A stretch of 64,000 nucleotides of DNA, taken from Candidatus Altiarchaeota archaeon (GTDB taxonomy: Archaea > Altiarchaeota > Altiarchaeia > IMC4 > SCGC-AAA252-I15). Positions 4,003 through 25,839 of this stretch are shown here, piece by piece. Under the pieces are notes generated by a model. It did not search any database. It was not told the origin of the DNA and was given only the letters and a program-made list of their open reading frames with translations. How positions within the stretch are numbered: the stretch's first letter is position 1; each line of letters starts with the position of its first letter. The DNA is taken from contig JAZDNF010000008.1 in NCBI GenBank assembly GCA_043800255.1, forward strand, positions 92,622 through 156,621, read 5' to 3'. The translations under genes were made by a program, and so were the position numbers.

Positions 4003-4136
4003 TGGGCCTGCGGCGATTCGAACGCCGGACCACTCGATCTCTCCAACCTTCTTTCTTTTCGCGAACGTTTTCTTTCTTCCTAAGAAAGAAAAGGTTCTAT
4101 GAGTCGAGCGCTCTGACCAGTCTGAGCTACAGGCCC
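4003..4136 (-). tRNA. tRNA with CAU anticodon, most likely tRNA-Ile2 (agmatidine type; elongator Met not excluded), 59-nt intron at 37/38 (4039-4097)
   Basis: GGGCCTG/CAGGCCC-A acceptor, GCTC/GAGC D-stem, CTCGA/TCGAG anticodon stem, CT-CAT-A loop, CGGCG-TTCGAAT-CGCCG T arm; BHB-like junction (bulges TAG and AGA, outer helix AACCTT/AAGGTT). Confidence 0.9.
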
Positions 4137-4287
4137 GTCTTTATTCTTTTTTTATTATTGGGCCATTAAGCGACCGATTGGGAGCGCATATGGCTCAACC
4201 GAGACATCCGTCTCGGTGAGCACGAAGACGAATGTCTTCGTTGCTCCTTTGGCCAGCCTTTAAAAAGGCTGTGAGCTACAGGCCCGT
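4123..4287 (-). repeat. 16-bp direct repeat of the tRNA 5' end (4123-4138 and 4272-4287) enclosing three hairpins
   Basis: TGAGCTACAGGCCCGT present twice; hairpins ACCGAGAC/GTCTCGGT, CGAAGAC/GTCTTCG and CAGCCTTT/AAAGGCTG in between; TATA-like TTTATTAAA (minus strand, ~4310-4318) upstream of the outer copy. Confidence 0.85.
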
Positions 4288-4326
4288 TTTGTGGATATAG
4301 TATTTGGTGTTTAATAAAAAATACGG

Positions 4327-4539
4327 TCAGCCTTCGATTTTGAGGTTGTCTATCCATTGTCTGACGTCGTCTTCGGTGTCGCCTTTGGTGCGTTTCATCA
4401 CCATCTTGTGGAGGTTTGAGAGGAAGTCGAGGTTGTATTCTTCGGCCAGAGGATGGGGGTCAGCGAGGAGGTACTCTGAGAGTTCTTGGTTTATCCGGTG
4501 GTAGAATCTTCTGATTTCTGTGGGGTGGGTTTTGTCCAT
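4327..4539 (-). CDS. Small hypothetical protein
   Basis: 70-aa ORF with ATG start and AT-rich upstream promoter region; LDFLSNLHKMVM weakly resembles a Fic N-terminal helix. Confidence 0.5.
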   Translation of the reverse strand: MDKTHPTEIRRFYHRINQELSEYLLADPHPLAEEYNLDFLSNLHKMVMKRTKGDTEDDVRQWIDNLKIEG

Positions 4540-4583
4540 CTTATATTCTGTTTATCATTTTCTTTTCATTATAATATAATGTC

Positions 4584-21973: not shown

Positions 21974-24787
21974 ATGGCTGAAGAGGTTGATTTCAAAAAT
22001 GTCGAGGAGAAGTGGCTGAAAAATTGGGAGGACTCTAAAGCCTTCCAGTCGAACCCAGACGGCAGGGAAAGATTCTATATCACCGTAGCCTACCCCTACC
22101 CTTCTGGTAGCATGCACGTCGGCCACGCGCGCACTTACACTGTGCCTGATGTCATAGCCCGCTTCAAGCGCATGCAAGGCTATAACGTCCTGTTCCCCAT
22201 GGCCTGGCATGTGACTGGCACTCCCATAATAGGCGCAGTCAACAGGCTGAAAAACAGGGAGGAAAAGCAGCTCAGGATCCTGAAGGAAGTGTGCGGCGTC
22301 TCGGAATCTGACTTGAAGCAGATGGAGACACCCATGGGCTACGCCCGCTATTTCATAGAGAACCACTACTACGCGTCAATGAGACGGCTCGGGTATACCA
22401 TAGACTGGAGGCGGCAGTTCACCACAAACGACAAGCACTATAACATGTTCGTCACCTGGCAGTACCTGAGCCTGCACAAGAGGGGGCTCCTGAAGGAGGG
22501 ACTGCATCCCGTGAAATACTGCCTCCATGACAGGAACCCGGTGACAACCCACGACCTCCTTGAGGGGGAGGATGCTGACATCCAGGAGTTCACGCTCCTG
22601 AAGTTCAAATTCGACAAGGAGTATCTGATTGCCGCGACACTGAGGCCTGAGACGGTGTTCGGGCAGACTAACATGTGGGTCGGCCCGGACATAGAGTATG
22701 TAAAGGCTAAAGTCGGGAGCGAGAGTTGGATAATAAGCGAACAGTGCGCGAAGAAGCTAGAACTCCAGGGCAAGAAAGTCGAAGTTACGGGGAAGGTTAA
22801 AGGCTCCAGCTTGATAGGAGAGTACTGCACCGCTCCCGGAATAAAAAGGGACATAATAATCCTGCCATCAGGGTTCTGCGACCCTGCGATCGGCTCAGGC
22901 CTCGTGACATCGGTGCCGAGCGACGCGCCCTACGACTGGATGGGCTTGAAGGATTTACAGGAGAACAATGAGCTATGTGAGAAGTACGGCCTCGACTGGA
23001 ACAAGGTAAAGAGCATAGAGGTCATACCAATAATAAGGACAGAGGAGTTTGGCGACAGGGCAGCCTTGAAAGTCTGCGAGGATATGGGAATAACAAGCCA
23101 GAAGGACACTAAAAAGCTCGAAGAGGCGACGAGCATAGTCTACAAGACCGGCTTCCATTCCGGCGTCATGAACGAGAACTGCGGCAGATACAAGGGCATG
23201 GCAGTCGTCAGGGCGAAGGAGAAGGTAAAAGAAGAGCTCCTCGAGAACGGCGAAGCAGACAAGATGCTCGAATTCTCCGAAAAAGTCAGGTGCAGGTGCG
23301 GCGGAGATGTGGTGGTCGCGAACGCGGAATCATGGTTCGTCGACTACAGCAACGAAGACTGGAAAGAGGTTACAAGAGCGGCCATAGGGCAGCTTAACAC
23401 GATACCTGAGAAGACCAAGCAGGAGTACCTTAACACGGTCGACCGGATGCACCCTTGGCCGTGCATCAGGAACTTCGGTCTCGGAACCAGACTGCCGATC
23501 GACGACAGGTTCATGATAGAGCCGCTCTCCGATTCCACGATATACATGGCCTACTATACGATATCCCACATCCTGAAGGAATTGAAGCCGGAGCAGCTGT
23601 CTGAGGAGTTCTTCAGCTATGTCTTCAGGAACGAGGGGAAACCTGATGAAGTCAGCAAGAGAACAGGCATCAAGCTTGAGACGCTAAAAAAGATAAAGGA
23701 AAGCTTCGACTACTGGTACCCGCAGAACTGGAGGTGCTCGGCCTTGGAGCTGATACAGAACCACCTCACGTTCATGATGTACCACCACACAGCCCTCTTC
23801 AACGCGGACAAATGGCCTCGGGGGATAGCAACCTTCGGGATGGGCCTGCTGGAGGGGCAGAAGATGTCCTCTTCGAAGGGGAATGTCGTCCTCCTAAAGG
23901 ACGCGATCGTAAAACACGGCGCAGACGTCATTAGACTGTTCCTCATGGGCAACGCCGAGCCTTGGCAGGATTTTGACTGGAGGGAGAGTTTCGTCCAGAG
24001 CACCTCCAAAAAGATGAGGAACTTCTATGAGATGGTATCGGAGCCAAAGGGCAGCGACCTGGAAGTGAGGGACATCGACAGGTGGCTTCTCTCAAGGCTT
24101 AACAGGACAATCAAGGGAACGACAGAGTCTCTGGAGATATTCCAGACGCGGAAGGCATTGCAGCAGGCGTTCTATGAGATGTTCGGGGACATCAACTGGT
24201 ACATGAGGAGAGCTGAACCTAACCGGAAGGCCCTCTCCAGAGTCTACCACGCCTGGGTCAGGCTGATGGCACCGTTCACCCCCTTCATCTGCGAGGAGCT
24301 GTGGAGTAGGATGGGAGAGAAAGGCTTCATCTCCAACGCAGAGTACCCGAAACCCGATGAGAGCCTGATAAACCCAGAAATAGAGGCCATCGAGAGCATG
24401 ATACAGGCAGTGATGGATGACGTGCAGAACATACTTGACGTCACCAAGGTGACGCCGAAGACAATCCACCTTTACGTCGCTCCGGAATGGAAGCGGAAAG
24501 TCTATAATGCGATAGCAGACAACAGGGGGATGAAGGAGCTGATGGCCGACCCTGAGCTGAAAAAATACGGCAAAGAGATTGCCAACATCATGAAGAAGAG
24601 GAGGGATGAGCTTCCCAGGACGATTGCCACATCATCAAGGGAAAAGCAGGCCCTGGATGATGCTGTTGGATTCTTGGAAGAGGAGTTCAGCTGCCAGTTC
24701 AAAGTCCACGAGAAAGCTGACTTCGACCCTGAGGGCAAGGCTAGATACGCTCTGCCTGCGAAGCCAGGCATCTACATAGAATCCTAG
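21974..24787 (+). CDS. leuS: Leucyl-tRNA synthetase (archaeal type)
   Basis: [43 protein letters not shown]. Confidence 0.97.
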
Positions 24788-25542
24788 GATGCCGACGCGT
24801 CAATGCAGTCTTCCGCGAAATCGCGTATGACACCCAGATCAAGTTTGCCCTTCTTTGACTGAAGGTTGCTGGGGCAGAACAGCTGCGGGACGGTGCCGAT
24901 GTCATAGTAGCCTGCAGCGCACTCTGGAAGCCGGTCAGATGAGTCTCCCATCAGTATCCTCCTGACAGTGTAAGGTTTCCCCTCATAGTCCAACTCCGCC
25001 AGCTCACCCAAGTACTCATCCACCTCATCGCATCCGGGGCAGTTCATGGAATAGTAGTAGATTATAGTATCAGCCCCTATCCCATATTTTGAGAAGCACT
25101 CACCAGCATTCCCAATGTTAGCCCTCAGGACTTCACATGCCTTTTCATTGAATGTGAGAGTGCACAGCGCCTCCGCAATATTATGCTTGCTCCTCGCTAT
25201 CGTAAGATACGCCCTCCCCTTGTAGACAACATACAGTGAAGGATTATAGACCGTGTCCGAGATGACGGGATTGATGGGAACATCGAACTCAGAGCCTATG
25301 GAATCCAAAACCTGAGCATCACCGTAAAACGTGTCACAATCCTCGCAGGTCGGCGGAACCCTCTTCGAACAGTCAACGCACCTGCCAGGATACATGTAGA
25401 ACACCCCCACATCATCAGAATAATTATAGGAGAACGGAAGCCCCCCATCCGGATTCAAGAAAAAAGCCTGATAAATCCTAAAACCCAAGACGAAACCGAC
25501 CAAAGTCAACAACACAATCATCAACGCAGTCTTAGTCTTCAT
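24784..25542 (-). CDS. Membrane-anchored Cys-rich thioredoxin/glutaredoxin-like protein
   Basis: N-terminal [19 protein letters not shown], cis-Pro-like TVPQLFC. Confidence 0.6.
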
Positions 25543-25629
25543 CTTTTTTTACCATAATACCACTATAGGTATACCAATTTGTAACCACACTATAAAAAGT
25601 TACAAAACCAGATAATACAAAGATAACAC

Positions 25630-25710
25630 AATGCCAGGGTGGCAGTCAAACCTCGCCTCAAAAAAGGCTCAGACCCGCCACCCCAGAAGAATAAAATGCC
25701 GGGGTGGCGG
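25630..25710 (+). repeat. Duplicated tRNA-Ser 5' end plus antisense segment in the tRNA leader
   Basis: AATGCCAGGGTGGCAG (25630-25645) vs AATGCCGGGGTGGCGG (25695-25710), 14/16 identical; CCGCCACCCC (25675-25684) is the exact complement of 25701-25710. Confidence 0.75.
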
Positions 25711-25839
25711 AGCACGGTTCATCGCGCAAGCCTGGAACAACCTTTTCCCGCCCCTCACGGGGCGGCAAAACGTTAACGAAAAGAATACAGCCAGCTTGTC
25801 GTCCATGCGGCGGCTTGGGTTCAAATCCCAACCCCGGCG
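25698..25839 (+). tRNA. tRNA-Ser(GGA) with 55-nt intron at 37/38 (25738-25792)
   Basis: GCCGGGG/CCCCGGC-G acceptor (G73), CAAGC/GCTTG anticodon stem, CT-GGA-A loop, long variable arm, TTGGG-TTCAAAT-CCCAA T arm. Confidence 0.9.

Follow-up and report, generated by a model that had tools for sequence, protein, structure and literature searches.

Two tRNA genes with introns lie in the window analysed here, a 64,000-nucleotide stretch of contig C11 (JAZDNF010000008.1) from the 1.75-Mb genome (G000) of a groundwater archaeon of the phylum Altiarchaeota. The tRNA-Met(CAU) gene occupies positions 4003–4136 of the minus strand, and ARAGORN with introns allowed (option -i) calls in it (C11 c[96624,96757]) a single intron of 59 nt at 4039–4097. 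The tRNA-Ser(GGA) gene is found on the plus strand at 25698–25840 (C11 [118318,118461]) and bears one intron of 55 nt, whose window position, 25738–25792, is derived by counting exon 1. Both introns are inserted at position 37/38, and the sequences and coordinates given for them in the initial annotation are borne out by the sequence and by these calls. With the intron option left off, ARAGORN calls no tRNA in the window, and Rfam yields no match there at the gathering threshold.

The resemblance between the two introns is best read, from their sequences, as that of two copies of one short (~45–55 nt) hairpin-forming repeat family. The Met module (4049–4097, minus strand) belongs to the T4 sub-type and reads G-AAC-[C]-TTTTCTTTCTT-agg-AAGAAAGAAAA-[C]-GTTC-GCG-AAAAGAAAGAA; it matches the covariance model of the family, R1, at C11:96670–96718 with an E-value of 5.2e-8, and nhmmer finds it at 1e-12. 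The rest of this intron (4039–4048, minus strand) is an intron-specific 3′ extension, GGTT-GGAG-AG, delimited by hand reading and minimum free energy (MFE) folding. The Ser module (25738–25789, plus strand; R1 match C11:118359–118410, E 6.3e-4) is of the GC-hairpin sub-type, C-AAC-[C]-TTTT-CCCGCCCC-tcac-GGGGCGGC-AAAA-[C]-GTTA-ACG-AAAAGAA. In the Met intron, the AT hairpin represents the family consensus, and the GC hairpin is a recurrent sub-type that also occurs at C5:18459, in one strain variant, in the intron of the genome's own tRNA-Asp gene, and in the tRNA-Met introns of genomes G011 and G018.

The three blocks that the introns were noticed to share do occur in the same order in both: the composite pattern AACCTTTT-N10-30-AAAACGTT-NN-CGAAAAGAA has two matches in the 64-kb window, one in each intron, versus none in 100 dinucleotide-preserving shuffles. 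It might be supposed that low-complexity, T/A-rich introns come to look alike by chance or convergence since all of them must form a bulge–helix–bulge (BHB), and the tracts are indeed of low complexity, with intron-specific 3′ ends tailored to each anticodon loop. This supposition is refuted by the shuffle control and the R1 matches and keeps practically no probability; moreover, identical 19-mers recur in non-intron copies, as does AAAACGTTAACGAAAAGAA of the Ser module in a tRNA-Thr trailer copy at C8:214118–214136.

Folded in isolation, each intron forms, at MFE, a hairpin of a pyrimidine tract (Y) with a purine tract (R), with one unpaired C on each side; thus, the inner hairpins, unlike in sequence, are both paired, as had been observed. 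In the predicted pre-tRNA folds, the splice-site helix is closed instead by the pairing of Y with R′, a further purine tract that mirrors R and provides the 3′ strand; the initial annotation had noted neither this mirror relation nor the role predicted for the tract. The Y:R′ pairing amounts to 8 + 5 bp in the Met pre-tRNA, including AACCU/AGGUU, and proceeds via CUUUUC/GAAAAG in the Ser pre-tRNA. By hand reading of the Met extension, GGTT forms helix h′ with AACC, GGAG pairs with positions 32–35, and AG lies in the 3′ bulge. Hand reading in the canonical register gives a central BHB helix made up of C32:G, U33:A, C34:G, and A35·G in Met and of C32:G, U33:A, G34:C, and G35·A in Ser, in keeping with the purine–purine mismatch at position 35 that had been described; the MFE register of Met is slightly off the canonical one because GGAGAG is repetitive. 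It is predicted that, in the pre-tRNA, Y would leave R to pair with R′, that the Y:R′ helix and the extension (GGTT, four nucleotides complementary to 32–35, and two more) would join the intron ends as a BHB, and that EndA would cut the BHB so formed.

The scaffold is clearly not confined to the two introns. Searches with nhmmer and R1 (E<0.01) recover 27 distinct full-length sense copies in the genome, with contexts assigned by ARAGORN, a T-arm scan, and reading. Thirteen are in tRNA introns, ten of the consensus type (Met, Ser-GGA, Leu-TAA, Leu-TAG, Gly-TCC, Cys, Ser-GCT, Thr-TGT, Asp, and Ala) and three belonging to a divergent “family 2”; in many 37/38 introns, the module sits right at the 5′ terminus. 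Seven stand directly behind small-RNA genes, namely the tRNAs Phe, Gly-TCC, Glu, Leu-GAG, and Thr-TGT and two C/D sRNA copies. Another five follow truncated 5′ copies of genes (three) or promoter stubs upstream of tRNAs (two), and two lie elsewhere. For all but one of the 27, a tRNA or sRNA gene lies no more than about 150 nt away. The copies outside introns are not scattered between genes at random: they directly adjoin the 3′ ends of tRNA and sRNA genes, in the sense direction, the trailer copies beginning at or beside the discriminator base. The closest relative of the Met intron module is itself a non-intron copy (C8:117722–117770; three differences in 49 nt). Since most structured copies reside outside introns, selection on the excised intron, which the initial annotation had considered, cannot be the general cause of conservation.

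The junction of a 5′ gene fragment, a module, and the whole gene recurs at tRNA genes, protein genes (ahcY and the GatB/E family), and a C/D sRNA. Between fragment and full gene there is just the module and a promoter (about 45–130 nt) and no recombinase gene. Simple module–module recombination is no explanation for such junctions, at least at protein genes. Further hairpins flank tRNA-Met in the window. Upstream of the real gene, on the same strand, a promoter-proximal 14-nt copy of its 5′ end (4285–4272) is followed by a T-run hairpin, AGCCTTTTTAAAGGCT (4270–4255), the whole covering 4255–4285; the same layout, 89% identical, is present upstream of tRNA-Ile(GAU) at C11:42268–42480. Downstream, also on the minus strand, a 3′ trailer hairpin, CTTTCTTTCTT-gta-AAGAAAGAAAG (3969–4000), gives a weak R1 match (C11:96590–96621, E 0.084) and resembles the hairpin half of the module only.

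The general layout of the module is N-AAC-[C]-pyrimidine tract-loop-purine tract-[C]-GTT-N′-ACG-second purine tract. N-AAC and GTT-N′ make up the hairpin foot, the Y:R stem comprises 10–13 bp, the loop is variable and may contain extra hairpins, and three linker bases, mostly ACG, lead to R′. Over 48 sequences, the 17 pairs are 99.1% paired, and in six of them both partners vary; at the outermost pair, 21 sequences have CG, 12 GC, 10 AU, and 5 UA. The covariation score was reached by none of 500 shuffles, and slid controls were 58–68% paired. The mirror tract was assessed in 84 distinct standard-linker copies from 64 sources, where R′ was left unconstrained by the search. The first base of Y, the last of R, and the first of R′ form the triple T-A-A in 52 copies and C-G-G in 31, with one discordant; the T/A/A runs have the same length (3, 4, 5, or 6) in 82 of 84, and N pairs with N′ in 83 of 84. 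The apparent covariation of hairpin and mirror tract is partly inflated by common descent of the copies. The C-for-G break pointed out in both window introns corresponds to a C·C mismatch conserved in 82 of the 84.

Homopurine mirror repeats such as GAA·TTC tracts are known to form H-DNA, an intramolecular triplex. The module, too, has a homopurine mirror repeat, R-spacer-R′, whose two arms correspond in G positions and run lengths, and with Y either strand is a candidate to fold as a hairpin plus third strand. Unlike H-DNA repeats, its arms are short (about 12 nt) and A-rich, and they go with a particular hairpin foot and gene position. A triplex and an alternative helix cannot be separated from the sequence because the tracts are of low complexity and R′ also pairs with Y (9–11 bp).

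Such a conserved fold raises the question of whether the structured RNA is itself functional, as an excised, probably circular intron or a 3′ trailer RNA that, for example, binds protein or forms a triple helix, introns and trailers being two routes of expression. The hairpin, mismatch, and mirror tract are strongly conserved over several phyla, and whether it lies in introns, in trailers, or in the ahcY leader, the module reads in the same direction as its host transcript. At the same time, we know of no RNA triplex type in which A-rich and U-rich arms take an A-rich third strand, the module has no match among Rfam families, orthologous tRNAs manage well in its absence, and the T-run, if it terminates, leaves most of a trailer module untranscribed. 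Archaeal introns are described as being circularised, some carrying sRNAs (PMC4090602), which fits; even so, this explanation is quite unlikely.

The hairpin foot invites another comparison. The attC sites of integrons are folded imperfect palindromes with an AAC/GTT foot, a conserved unpaired base, and a variable centre, located at gene 3′ ends in one orientation. The module has all these features, and it might be a folded-DNA recombination site of this kind for a tyrosine recombinase, with the genes before it acting as cassettes and the introns and fragments arising as by-products at secondary sites. The odd junctions with truncated gene 5′ ends and the presence of one tyrosine recombinase gene in the genome (C7:191 kb) agree with this. 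However, no module adjoins that gene, there are no cassette arrays and no integron integrase context, and the host genes, being tRNA genes, carry promoters of their own and are not promoterless ORFs; the mirror tract has no attC counterpart, and the foot pairs covary perfectly, whereas frequent G/TT exchange would scramble N:N′. An attC-like site is very unlikely.

In the phylum, 48 of 61 genomes have a match at E≤1e-5, with 0–31 matches each. All five DPANN genomes reached via pattern matches contain 7–42, and the module occurs in 9 of 81 sampled Micrarchaeota (counts including 25, 24, 10, 5, and 4) and in none of the other 72. Some copies in DPANN extend over stop codons. Near-identical copies occur across phyla. 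Going by these matches, the family is native to Altiarchaeota and also present in some DPANN archaea. Orthologous sites differ in occupancy: tRNA(CAU) genes matching that of the window have a 37/38 intron of about 40–82 nt and unlike contents in seven relatives and are intronless in six, and of nine tRNA-Ser(GGA) genes found, seven carry introns of at least four kinds and two carry none. In run X1, a 6.7-kb contig of about 97% identity has a 38-nt GC-hairpin module in place of the inner part of the tRNA-Thr(GGU) intron (C5:16241–16330); this allele is a chimera because its 3′ foot GTTC mismatches the resident 5′ foot CAGC. An X3 contig lacks exactly a 52-nt nested double hairpin.

The patchy, high-copy spread in DPANN and the cross-phylum near-identity look more like an actively mobile element than a housekeeping signal. 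A selfish non-autonomous element (MITE-, REP-, or PATE-like), whose transposase is absent or unrecognised here, would have gene ends as its target preference and introns as tolerated insertions; the very uneven copy number and the occupied or empty orthologous sites speak for it, and the conserved mismatch in the foot resembles recognition features of hairpin-binding recombinases. Against this, the 93%-complete genome yielded no Y1/IS200 (RAYT) transposase, TnpB, or reverse transcriptase despite its 27 copies, neither a target-site duplication nor terminal inverted repeats were seen at the module, and 2.9 million viral contigs gave one chance match in a coding region only. Placement is strongly sense and exact at the tRNA discriminator base, and the covariation of the three tracts indicates that the fold of the element itself is under selection. 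A mobile element is unlikely. Membership among bacterial REP/BIME elements, as proposed initially, does not hold. They are likewise short, imperfect, multi-copy palindromes that lie at the 3′ ends of genes and have been proposed to terminate or protect transcripts, but the module comes without a RAYT/Y1 transposase, TnpB, or GTAG head, in tens of copies rather than hundreds, with an extra mirror purine tract, and inside tRNA introns. The other half of that proposal, a repeat that becomes or colonises introns, is fair wording because the module is multi-copy in introns and elsewhere and is present, absent, or replaced at orthologous sites.

The best reading overall, and one somewhat better than an even bet, is a recombining gene-end repeat repeatedly recruited as an intron. 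The scaffold would have reached unrelated tRNAs by DNA-level exchange between copies, through ectopic recombination or gene conversion by host functions; a module from a gene 3′ end, placed in or swapped into an anticodon loop, would persist where a BHB can form. Such exchange is suggested by the one chimeric allele and the presence/absence patterns, no event having been reconstructed with both parents. The least certain part is the primary role of the module, perhaps that of an orientation-specific 3′-end element which serves small-RNA genes in T-run termination and/or 3′-end processing or protection, with the mirror tract possibly retained for the alternative helix or hairpin–triplex fold. 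An efficient T-run terminator would make the intron copies and the ahcY leader copy abort their own genes, and T-run length shows no evident difference between intron and trailer copies. The ahcY module abuts the ATG with no promoter between, so transcription must pass through a sense module to some extent at least, and the terminator reading is the weaker for it. As the repeat also stands behind tRNA and other genes, it offers a concrete lead on the origin of new tRNA introns.

In Thermoproteales, groups of similar introns in different tRNA genes were ascribed to “large-scale intron transposition” (Fujishima et al. 2010, via PMC4090602; bioRxiv 10.64898/2026.10.13.758758). As outlined there, the two cases share similar introns across isotypes in one genome, gain and loss among relatives, the need for a BHB at the new site, and a suspected DNA-level process. 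Here the hosts are Altiarchaeota and DPANN, and, unlike in the Thermoproteales as described, the shared part is a structured module also found outside introns (tRNA/sRNA trailers, a 5′ leader, DPANN stop codons). Transposition at the RNA level, with excised introns entering other pre-tRNAs by reverse splicing and then becoming fixed through reverse transcription and recombination, could draw on that proposal (PMC4090602) and on the tRNA-Leu(UAA) and tRNA-Met introns, which are alike beyond the module, both ending in ...AGAAGGTT-NGAG-AN, in similar anticodon loops. Its probability is very low indeed: a reverse transcriptase was not found in the genome, most copies (14 of 27) are not introns, and the X1 breakpoints lie inside the module, as DNA recombination predicts.

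Split and disrupted tRNAs are a further parallel to the recombining gene-end repeat. In split tRNAs, the trailer and leader of the halves pair into a BHB (PMC4090602), and in Caldiarchaeum a 5′ fragment of tRNA-Thr lying upstream of the complete gene was attributed to a 1.8-kb integrated element (PMC3293823). As these cases are described, they have in common with the junctions above a tRNA 5′ piece, non-tRNA sequence, and then the complete or remaining gene, and the introns look like a 3′ trailer fused to what remains of the gene. The Caldiarchaeum case as reported differs from the short, recombinase-free junctions found here, which extend to protein genes and a C/D sRNA.

Finally, a point against the preferred reading is that the genome's single EndA, a 179-aa ORF, falls by its size among the strict-motif enzymes, and both window introns carry a mismatch in the central helix.

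The gene for tRNA-Met(CAU) lies at 4136-4003 on the minus strand of the window and carries a 59-nt intron (4097-4039); that for tRNA-Ser(GGA) lies at 25698-25840 on the plus strand, with a 55-nt intron (25738-25792). Both genes and both introns, as placed by the initial annotation, have been recovered by ARAGORN with its intron option (-i) and by reading of the sequence. Without this option, and with Rfam at its gathering threshold, no tRNA is called in the window, a failure of the standard tools that is caused by the module inserted into the genes. Removal of the intron restores a canonical tRNA in both cases, the exon halves matching intronless tRNA(CAU) genes of 74-76 nt in six relatives and tRNA-Ser(GGA) genes in two. 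The three blocks of 8, 8 and 9 nt reported for the introns are indeed identical and stand in the same order, and the hairpin that they flank is paired in both introns upon folding. The composite pattern has two matches in the 64 kb and none in 100 dinucleotide-preserving shuffles, so the block matches are not those expected by chance. The starting observation is thus right and far from chance. Moreover, the scaffold is found outside these two introns: simple pattern scans already locate it in further tRNA introns and outside tRNAs, as do nhmmer and a covariance model of the module (R1).

The genome under study comprises 17 contigs (designated C2, C5, etc.) of 1.75 Mb in total and is 93% complete; the window corresponds to C11:92622-156621. 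The nhmmer search converged on 21 copies in it, and R1, built from an alignment (A2) of 48 copies from this and foreign genomes, gives 53 matches at E<=1, 27 of them being distinct full-length sense copies at E<0.01 and the remainder weaker matches or reverse-strand echoes of the hairpin. The Met and Ser introns score at E-values of 5e-8 and 6e-4, respectively. The module has no match in Rfam at the gathering threshold in the window and none at E<=0.1 among 20 loci with module copies.

Copies were classified by ARAGORN -i, a regular-expression scan for the T-arm and reading by eye, a tRNA census that is incomplete, as tRNAs with T-loop or multiple introns would escape it (the Rfam tRNA model finds only 12 tRNAs in the whole genome). 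Thirteen of the 27 copies stand in the introns of 13 different tRNA genes, ten of the consensus type (Met, Ser-GGA, Leu-UAA, Leu-UAG, Gly-UCC, Cys, Ser-GCU, Thr-UGU, Asp and Ala) and three of a divergent type, family 2; highly similar introns are thus present across isotypes in one genome, as in the transposed intron groups of Thermoproteales. Beyond these 13, the introns of Thr-GGU and Gly-GCC contain the module with a nested 52-nt double hairpin. The similarity is not confined to introns, since the other 14 copies recognized by R1 stand elsewhere: five are trailers of tRNA genes (Phe, Gly-UCC, Glu, Leu-GAG and Thr-UGU), starting 1-6 nt past the mature 3′ end; two follow copies of a C/D-box sRNA, in which the boxes are visible (Rfam sR2 is weak, E 6.5e-4, below gathering); three follow a truncated 5′ copy of the next gene (C/D sRNA, tRNA-Glu and ahcY); two follow short promoter-proximal stubs upstream of tRNAs; and two are antisense, one directly adjoining the start codon of an ORF near tRNA-Trp and one 60 nt behind tRNA-Arg. 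The ORF in question (MQCEICGRIV..., minus strand, C8:117500-117722, locus L004 1-222) lies 113 nt from tRNA-Trp, and its ATG adjoins the antisense module with no space for a promoter; the module can therefore occupy a 5′ leader in antisense orientation as well. The sRNA gene at C13:11300-12100 (L009) forms a tandem of three units, the first internally deleted, with a module after each.

The module consensus reads N-AAC-[C]-TTTT(T)CTTTCTT-loop-AAGAAAGAAAA(A)-[C]-GTT-N'-ACG-(A)AAAAGAAAGAA, i.e., a foot, a C opposite C, a pyrimidine arm Y, a loop, a purine arm R, a linker and a second purine tract R′. In A2, 99.1% of 778 cells are paired, and six of the 17 pairs vary on both sides. The outermost pair, which was left free by the copy-selection pattern, is CG in 21 copies, GC in 12, AU in ten and UA in five, and is never unpaired. 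The covariation score of the alignment was matched by none of 500 shuffles, and sliding the partner by 1-3 columns lowers pairing to 58-68%. Among 84 distinct copies with the standard linker, collected from 64 sources, the foot is paired at all four positions in 79, and what had been described as a C-for-G break in the inverted repeat is a C opposite C present in 82.

R′ is the mirror image of R and never its direct repeat. In the same 84 copies, related by descent so that counts overstate the number of independent events, the linker-adjacent base is A in both purine tracts with T in the pyrimidine arm 52 times, G in both with C 31 times and discordant once (concordance of the first base in 83 of 84), and in 82 the T-run is as long as the A-runs of both purine tracts, at lengths of 3, 4, 5 and 6. 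In a looser set that includes alleles from DPANN archaea with other G spacings, agreement is seen in 102 of 108 copies at the first run and in 79 of 84 at the second. The rule, of which AAAAGAGAAAAA with AAAAAGAGAAAA is an example allele, thus holds over four run-length states and several G spacings, which argues for selection on more than T-richness. A homopurine mirror repeat with arms that match position by position, as required of an H-DNA-like motif, is present. The rule fits a hairpin with a third strand, bound in the purine motif on the sense strand or in the pyrimidine motif (T.A-T) on the complementary one. It also fits a two-state switch in which Y would pair with either R or R′, since the tracts are near-symmetric and R′ is able to pair with Y over 9-13 bp. 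The triplex and this alternative Watson–Crick helix of 9-13 bp are inseparable from sequence alone. The idea that the linker is a box C/D or K-turn element (TGACGA compared with TGATGA) was dropped, the G of its TGA being variable (TCA, TTA, TAA, TCG).

In isolation, the Met and Ser introns fold as the Y:R hairpin, whereas within the pre-tRNA the minimum free energy (MFE) fold of both switches to Y:R′. The Met pre-tRNA is predicted to form 8 bp of Y:R′ together with AACCU:AGGUU, and the Ser pre-tRNA CUUUUC:GAAAAG around its GC hairpin. According to these models, the long Y:R′ helix would be the h′ arm of the splice motif. In the hBHBh′ motif, a 4-bp helix is expected between two 3-nt bulges; a drawing by hand in the canonical register gives, for both introns, a central helix of three pairs plus one mismatch, together with a long h′. 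The mismatch is the purine–purine opposition at position 35 pointed out in the initial annotation. The MFE folds agree with the h′ helix but shift the register in Met. Cleavage of both introns by EndA, for which the genome has one gene (PF01974, a 179-aa ORF), and ligation in vivo are predicted. As compared with trailer copies, intron copies bear a short extra 3′ extension (GGTT-GGAG-AG in Met, T-ACAG-CC in Ser and GGTT-TGAG-AA in Leu-UAA), which pairs with AACC and tRNA positions 32-35. As it is this extension that sets intron copies apart, some 7-10 added nucleotides make the module a candidate intron.

To our knowledge, almost nothing has been described on the formation of transcript 3′ ends in Altiarchaeota and DPANN archaea. 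Oligo-T is the archaeal termination signal. In the module, a run of T3-T6 followed by CTTTCTT begins 1-6 nt past the mature 3′ end of the five tRNAs and also after the two sRNA copies, and this T-run is the sole T-rich stretch near these ends. The complementary strand presents two T-runs to incoming antisense transcription. The placement of the module (at the tRNA discriminator base, behind sRNAs and on stop codons), together with its sense orientation, argues for a possible role as a 3′-end element. A plain terminator is harder to reconcile with the introns and with ahcY (AdoHcyase by Pfam), in which the module stands between an upstream segment, made up of the native promoter and the first 23 codons, and the ATG of the complete gene, which it directly precedes: in both situations, transcription has to pass through the module, which in the sense direction could therefore terminate only leakily or conditionally, if at all. 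It may instead serve in 3′-end processing or protection. Both what the fold does and how the module spreads are inferred here.

Introns of this kind turn over among relatives. The tRNA(CAU) comparison covered 12 loci of relatives, one of which is a tRNA-Ile(GAU). A 37/38 intron of about 40-82 nt is present in the matching tRNA(CAU) of seven relatives; all seven introns open with AACC and a T-run, but their interiors differ and include GC-hairpin and family-2 types. The six relatives with intronless genes matching both exon halves are other ones. Nine tRNA-Ser(GGA) genes were found, seven with introns of at least four kinds (lengths from the script are approximate) and two without, one of the latter carrying the module as a trailer. 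The gene for tRNA-Ile(GAU) at C11:41965-42128 has a family-2 intron, yet its upstream 208 nt are 89% identical to those of tRNA-Met. The copy most similar to the module in the Met intron is intergenic (C8:117722, three differences in 49), not one in any orthologous intron.

Exchange has also been observed between strains, by aligning contigs of four coded groundwater runs to C5:1-20000. In a 6.7-kb contig of run X1 (150 differences in 5,373 aligned bases), the segment C5:16241-16330 in the tRNA-Thr(GGU) intron is replaced by 38 other nucleotides that constitute a GC-hairpin module; its 3′ foot is mismatched to the resident 5′ foot, so that the allele is chimeric, with the breakpoint in the T-run. 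In a 2.1-kb contig of run X3, precisely the nested 52-nt double hairpin is missing and a standard module remains, so that the double hairpin is an insertion/deletion polymorphism. Joints that skip exactly the tRNA-Gly(UCC) intron (9551->9629, 77 nt) or most of the tRNA-Glu intron, or that replace the Gly trailer module, were not counted as strain polymorphism because their sides are short (23-38 nt) and 85% alike, and they possibly come from other organisms. In the C5 alignment, the X1 joint 18419->18635 has a side of 92. From these data, we infer that the module spreads by ectopic recombination or gene conversion among its copies.

The initial annotation had proposed a REP-like mobile element that becomes or colonizes spliceable introns. 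As for a repeat that supplies introns, the proposal is broadly right (27 copies, 13 in introns), but the REP-like mobile element finds no support. In the 93%-complete genome, there is no match to the Y1 (RAYT/IS200) transposase (PF01797; the control is positive in six of 14 reference genomes), to TnpB (PF07282) or to reverse transcriptase (PF00078); neither the REP label nor autonomous mobility is supported, and the REP/RAYT, IS200/IS605 and retroelement routes have been rejected for want of these genes in this assembly. The palindromic elements of IS200/IS605 need TnpA/TnpB or related ends, and neither gene is found here. The single tyrosine recombinase (C7:191315-191800) has no module nearby. 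Integron attC sites belong to arrays of promoterless ORFs, each with its site, beside an integron integrase, whereas the module flanks tRNA and sRNA genes and the recombinase is remote. The closest parallel comes from Thermoproteales, where similar introns occur in unrelated tRNAs by a transposition mechanism called unknown in a review (PMC4090602), and where, according to a 2026 preprint, 28.3% of 272 intervening sequences fall into cross-isotype families at >=80% identity (bioRxiv 10.64898/2026.10.13.758758). For Asgard archaea, the same preprint states that copying, mobile elements and reverse transcription were tested, that no arrival route was found and that "how they arrive remains open" (bioRxiv 10.64898/2026.10.13.758758). 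Likeness across isotypes is common to Thermoproteales and the present genome, but here the module is also found outside introns (14 of 27).

Aside from introns and trailers, the module recurs in a junction in which the promoter and a 5′ piece of a gene are followed by the module and then by the whole gene. This arrangement is seen at tRNA-Glu, tRNA-Phe and a C/D sRNA, at tRNAs of other genomes (L032, L040) and, in a version with a minimal hairpin, at tRNA-Met in the window (4285-4255, minus strand) and at tRNA-Ile. In the former, a promoter is followed by no more than the initial 14 nt of tRNA-Met (GGGCCTGTAGCTCA) and by a T-run hairpin, about 130 nt upstream of the real tRNA-Met; two such 5′ stubs precede tRNA-Ile(GAU) at C11:42130-42480. 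Among protein genes, ahcY shows the junction in members of three genera, the fragments being 23, 8 and 26 codons long (the plain gene is found in 11 relatives), and a GatB/E-family gene has it in two genomes. These junctions of the AdoHcyase and GatB/E families, with a copy of the first 8-26 codons, are located at C16:37829-37950 (L005/L090), L091 (genome G001), L094 (genome G017), and L064 and L027. By hand reading, codons that differ between the fragment and the full copy are synonymous in six of ten cases in the genome's own ahcY and in six of eight in L064. In G001, G017 and L064, the frame of the fragment crosses the module and ends at or beside the main ATG, as it would in translational coupling. 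Unequal crossing-over of a module in an intron with one in an upstream trailer was considered as the source of the junctions and rejected: it would give a promoter and 5′ exon, the module, and then a promoter with the full tRNA, which fits neither the protein genes nor tRNA-Glu, because the fragment of the latter ends in the D-loop and the present intron is at 37/38. None of the mechanisms considered fits all junction cases. The recurrence of the junction nevertheless marks the module as a breakpoint for rearrangements.

An exact degenerate pattern of the 3′ half of the module, scanned over GTDB with one genome per species, yields 57 stretches. In four, which come from bacteria, the remainder of the module is missing; the other stretches belong to Altiarchaeota, Micrarchaeota, Iainarchaeota/Diapherotrites, Aenigmatarchaeota and unclassified archaeal MAGs and stand in the same contexts. 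In blastn, the genome under study is closest to Altiarchaeota records; an affiliation with Thermoproteales (Thermofilum), considered at first, was dropped on the strength of these two results. Within Altiarchaeota, 61 genomes were searched with R1, and 48 contain the module at E<=1e-5 (0-31 matches per genome); the model also gives 7-42 matches in five DPANN genomes reached via pattern matches. In Micrarchaeota, only nine of 81 sampled genomes carry it, a few with 10-25 matches. Near-universal presence in one phylum as against patchy, high-copy presence in one that shares its habitat suggests transfer between them; some DPANN archaea live on Altiarchaeota. Spread by viruses was also considered, but the single match among 2.9 million viral contigs lies in a coding region, without the pyrimidine arm and without an R1 match, and was treated as chance. 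At DPANN loci, the N-AA of the foot is often the TAA behind a long open frame. An automatic classifier placed 25 of 109 distinct copies directly behind a tRNA T-arm/acceptor end and ten on a stop codon (frame of at least 60 codons), with 74 counted as "other", introns included. In DPANN genomes (L119, L129, L124, L120 of Micrarchaeota; L021, L052), the module also forms the body of T-loop and D-loop tRNA introns, beyond position 37/38.

In the literature on tRNA introns, terminators, repeats and mirror repeats of Altiarchaeota, DPANN and Micrarchaeota, no account of the module was found (subscription journals and supplements were outside the scope). What appears to be new is the lineage; the recognition of the shared sequence as a structured module that resides for the most part at gene 3′ ends and not in introns; the mirror-tract rule and the conserved mismatch; the predicted closing of the splice helix by R′; and the swapping of module variants at the strain level. 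A tentative reading, possible though still rather doubtful, is that the three-tract module, folded as a hairpin-triplex or a two-state switch, marks gene ends in Altiarchaeota and some DPANN archaea as a signal not described before, and that new tRNA introns physically derive from it. Recombination would copy a module from a trailer into an anticodon loop, where the built-in Y:R′ pairing would provide the helix needed for immediate splicing of the insertion; the junctions of a 5′ gene fragment with the whole gene, some of them now serving as translationally coupled leaders, would likewise be products of this recombinogenic module. If true, this would be the first sequence-defined donor for the gain of archaeal tRNA introns. 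The shared intron sequence is traceable to a defined element that is not restricted to introns but also stands at the 3′ ends of genes of this same class, and the strain-level variants catch the module being exchanged. With donor sites, recipient sites, a fold predicted to allow immediate splicing and natural presence/absence alleles, intron arrival becomes testable in a concrete system. Regardless of its role, the module is a structured motif conserved deeply and across phyla, and its mirror-repeat rule is unusual.

Several other repeated elements accompany the module. The 52-nt double hairpin, composed of GCGACGAAGAC...GTCTTCGTGCGC and AACGAGAC...GTCTCGTT, occurs nested in some modules, where it separates the purine arm from the linker, and has been located at C5:16258-16309, C8:278867-278917, C8:132983-133014, C13:14721-14752, C11:63626-63657 and upstream of tRNA-Met in the window (c. 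4197-4243, minus strand). Two more intron families are common to different tRNAs. Family 2 (AGCCCCTTTCTTT-loop-AAAGAAAGG-TGCTTCAC-CCCCAAAGAAAA; C2:12605, C5:18326, C5:9338, C7:37080, C11:63354 and C11:42042) scores weakly with R1 and may be a divergent relative of the module; family 3 (ACGCTCGCCCCC...GGGGCTCGCTCTGTCCTATCGGACAGC; C4:4496, C8:129073 and C12:11538) is unrelated to it. A second conserved element of tRNA flanks, a 6-7-bp stem around ATGCGCTC...(T)CGCTTAG, is found at 4160-4196 of the window (minus strand) and at C8:133234, C8:212520, C11:63233, C11:42347, C11:35125 and C15:22448, usually behind a simple AACCTTT...AAAGGTT hairpin and the sequence ATCAAA. A similar motif, GGCTCACTGGCGTTCGC, follows modules in an Aenigmatarchaeota genome (L108, L117, L122 and L128).
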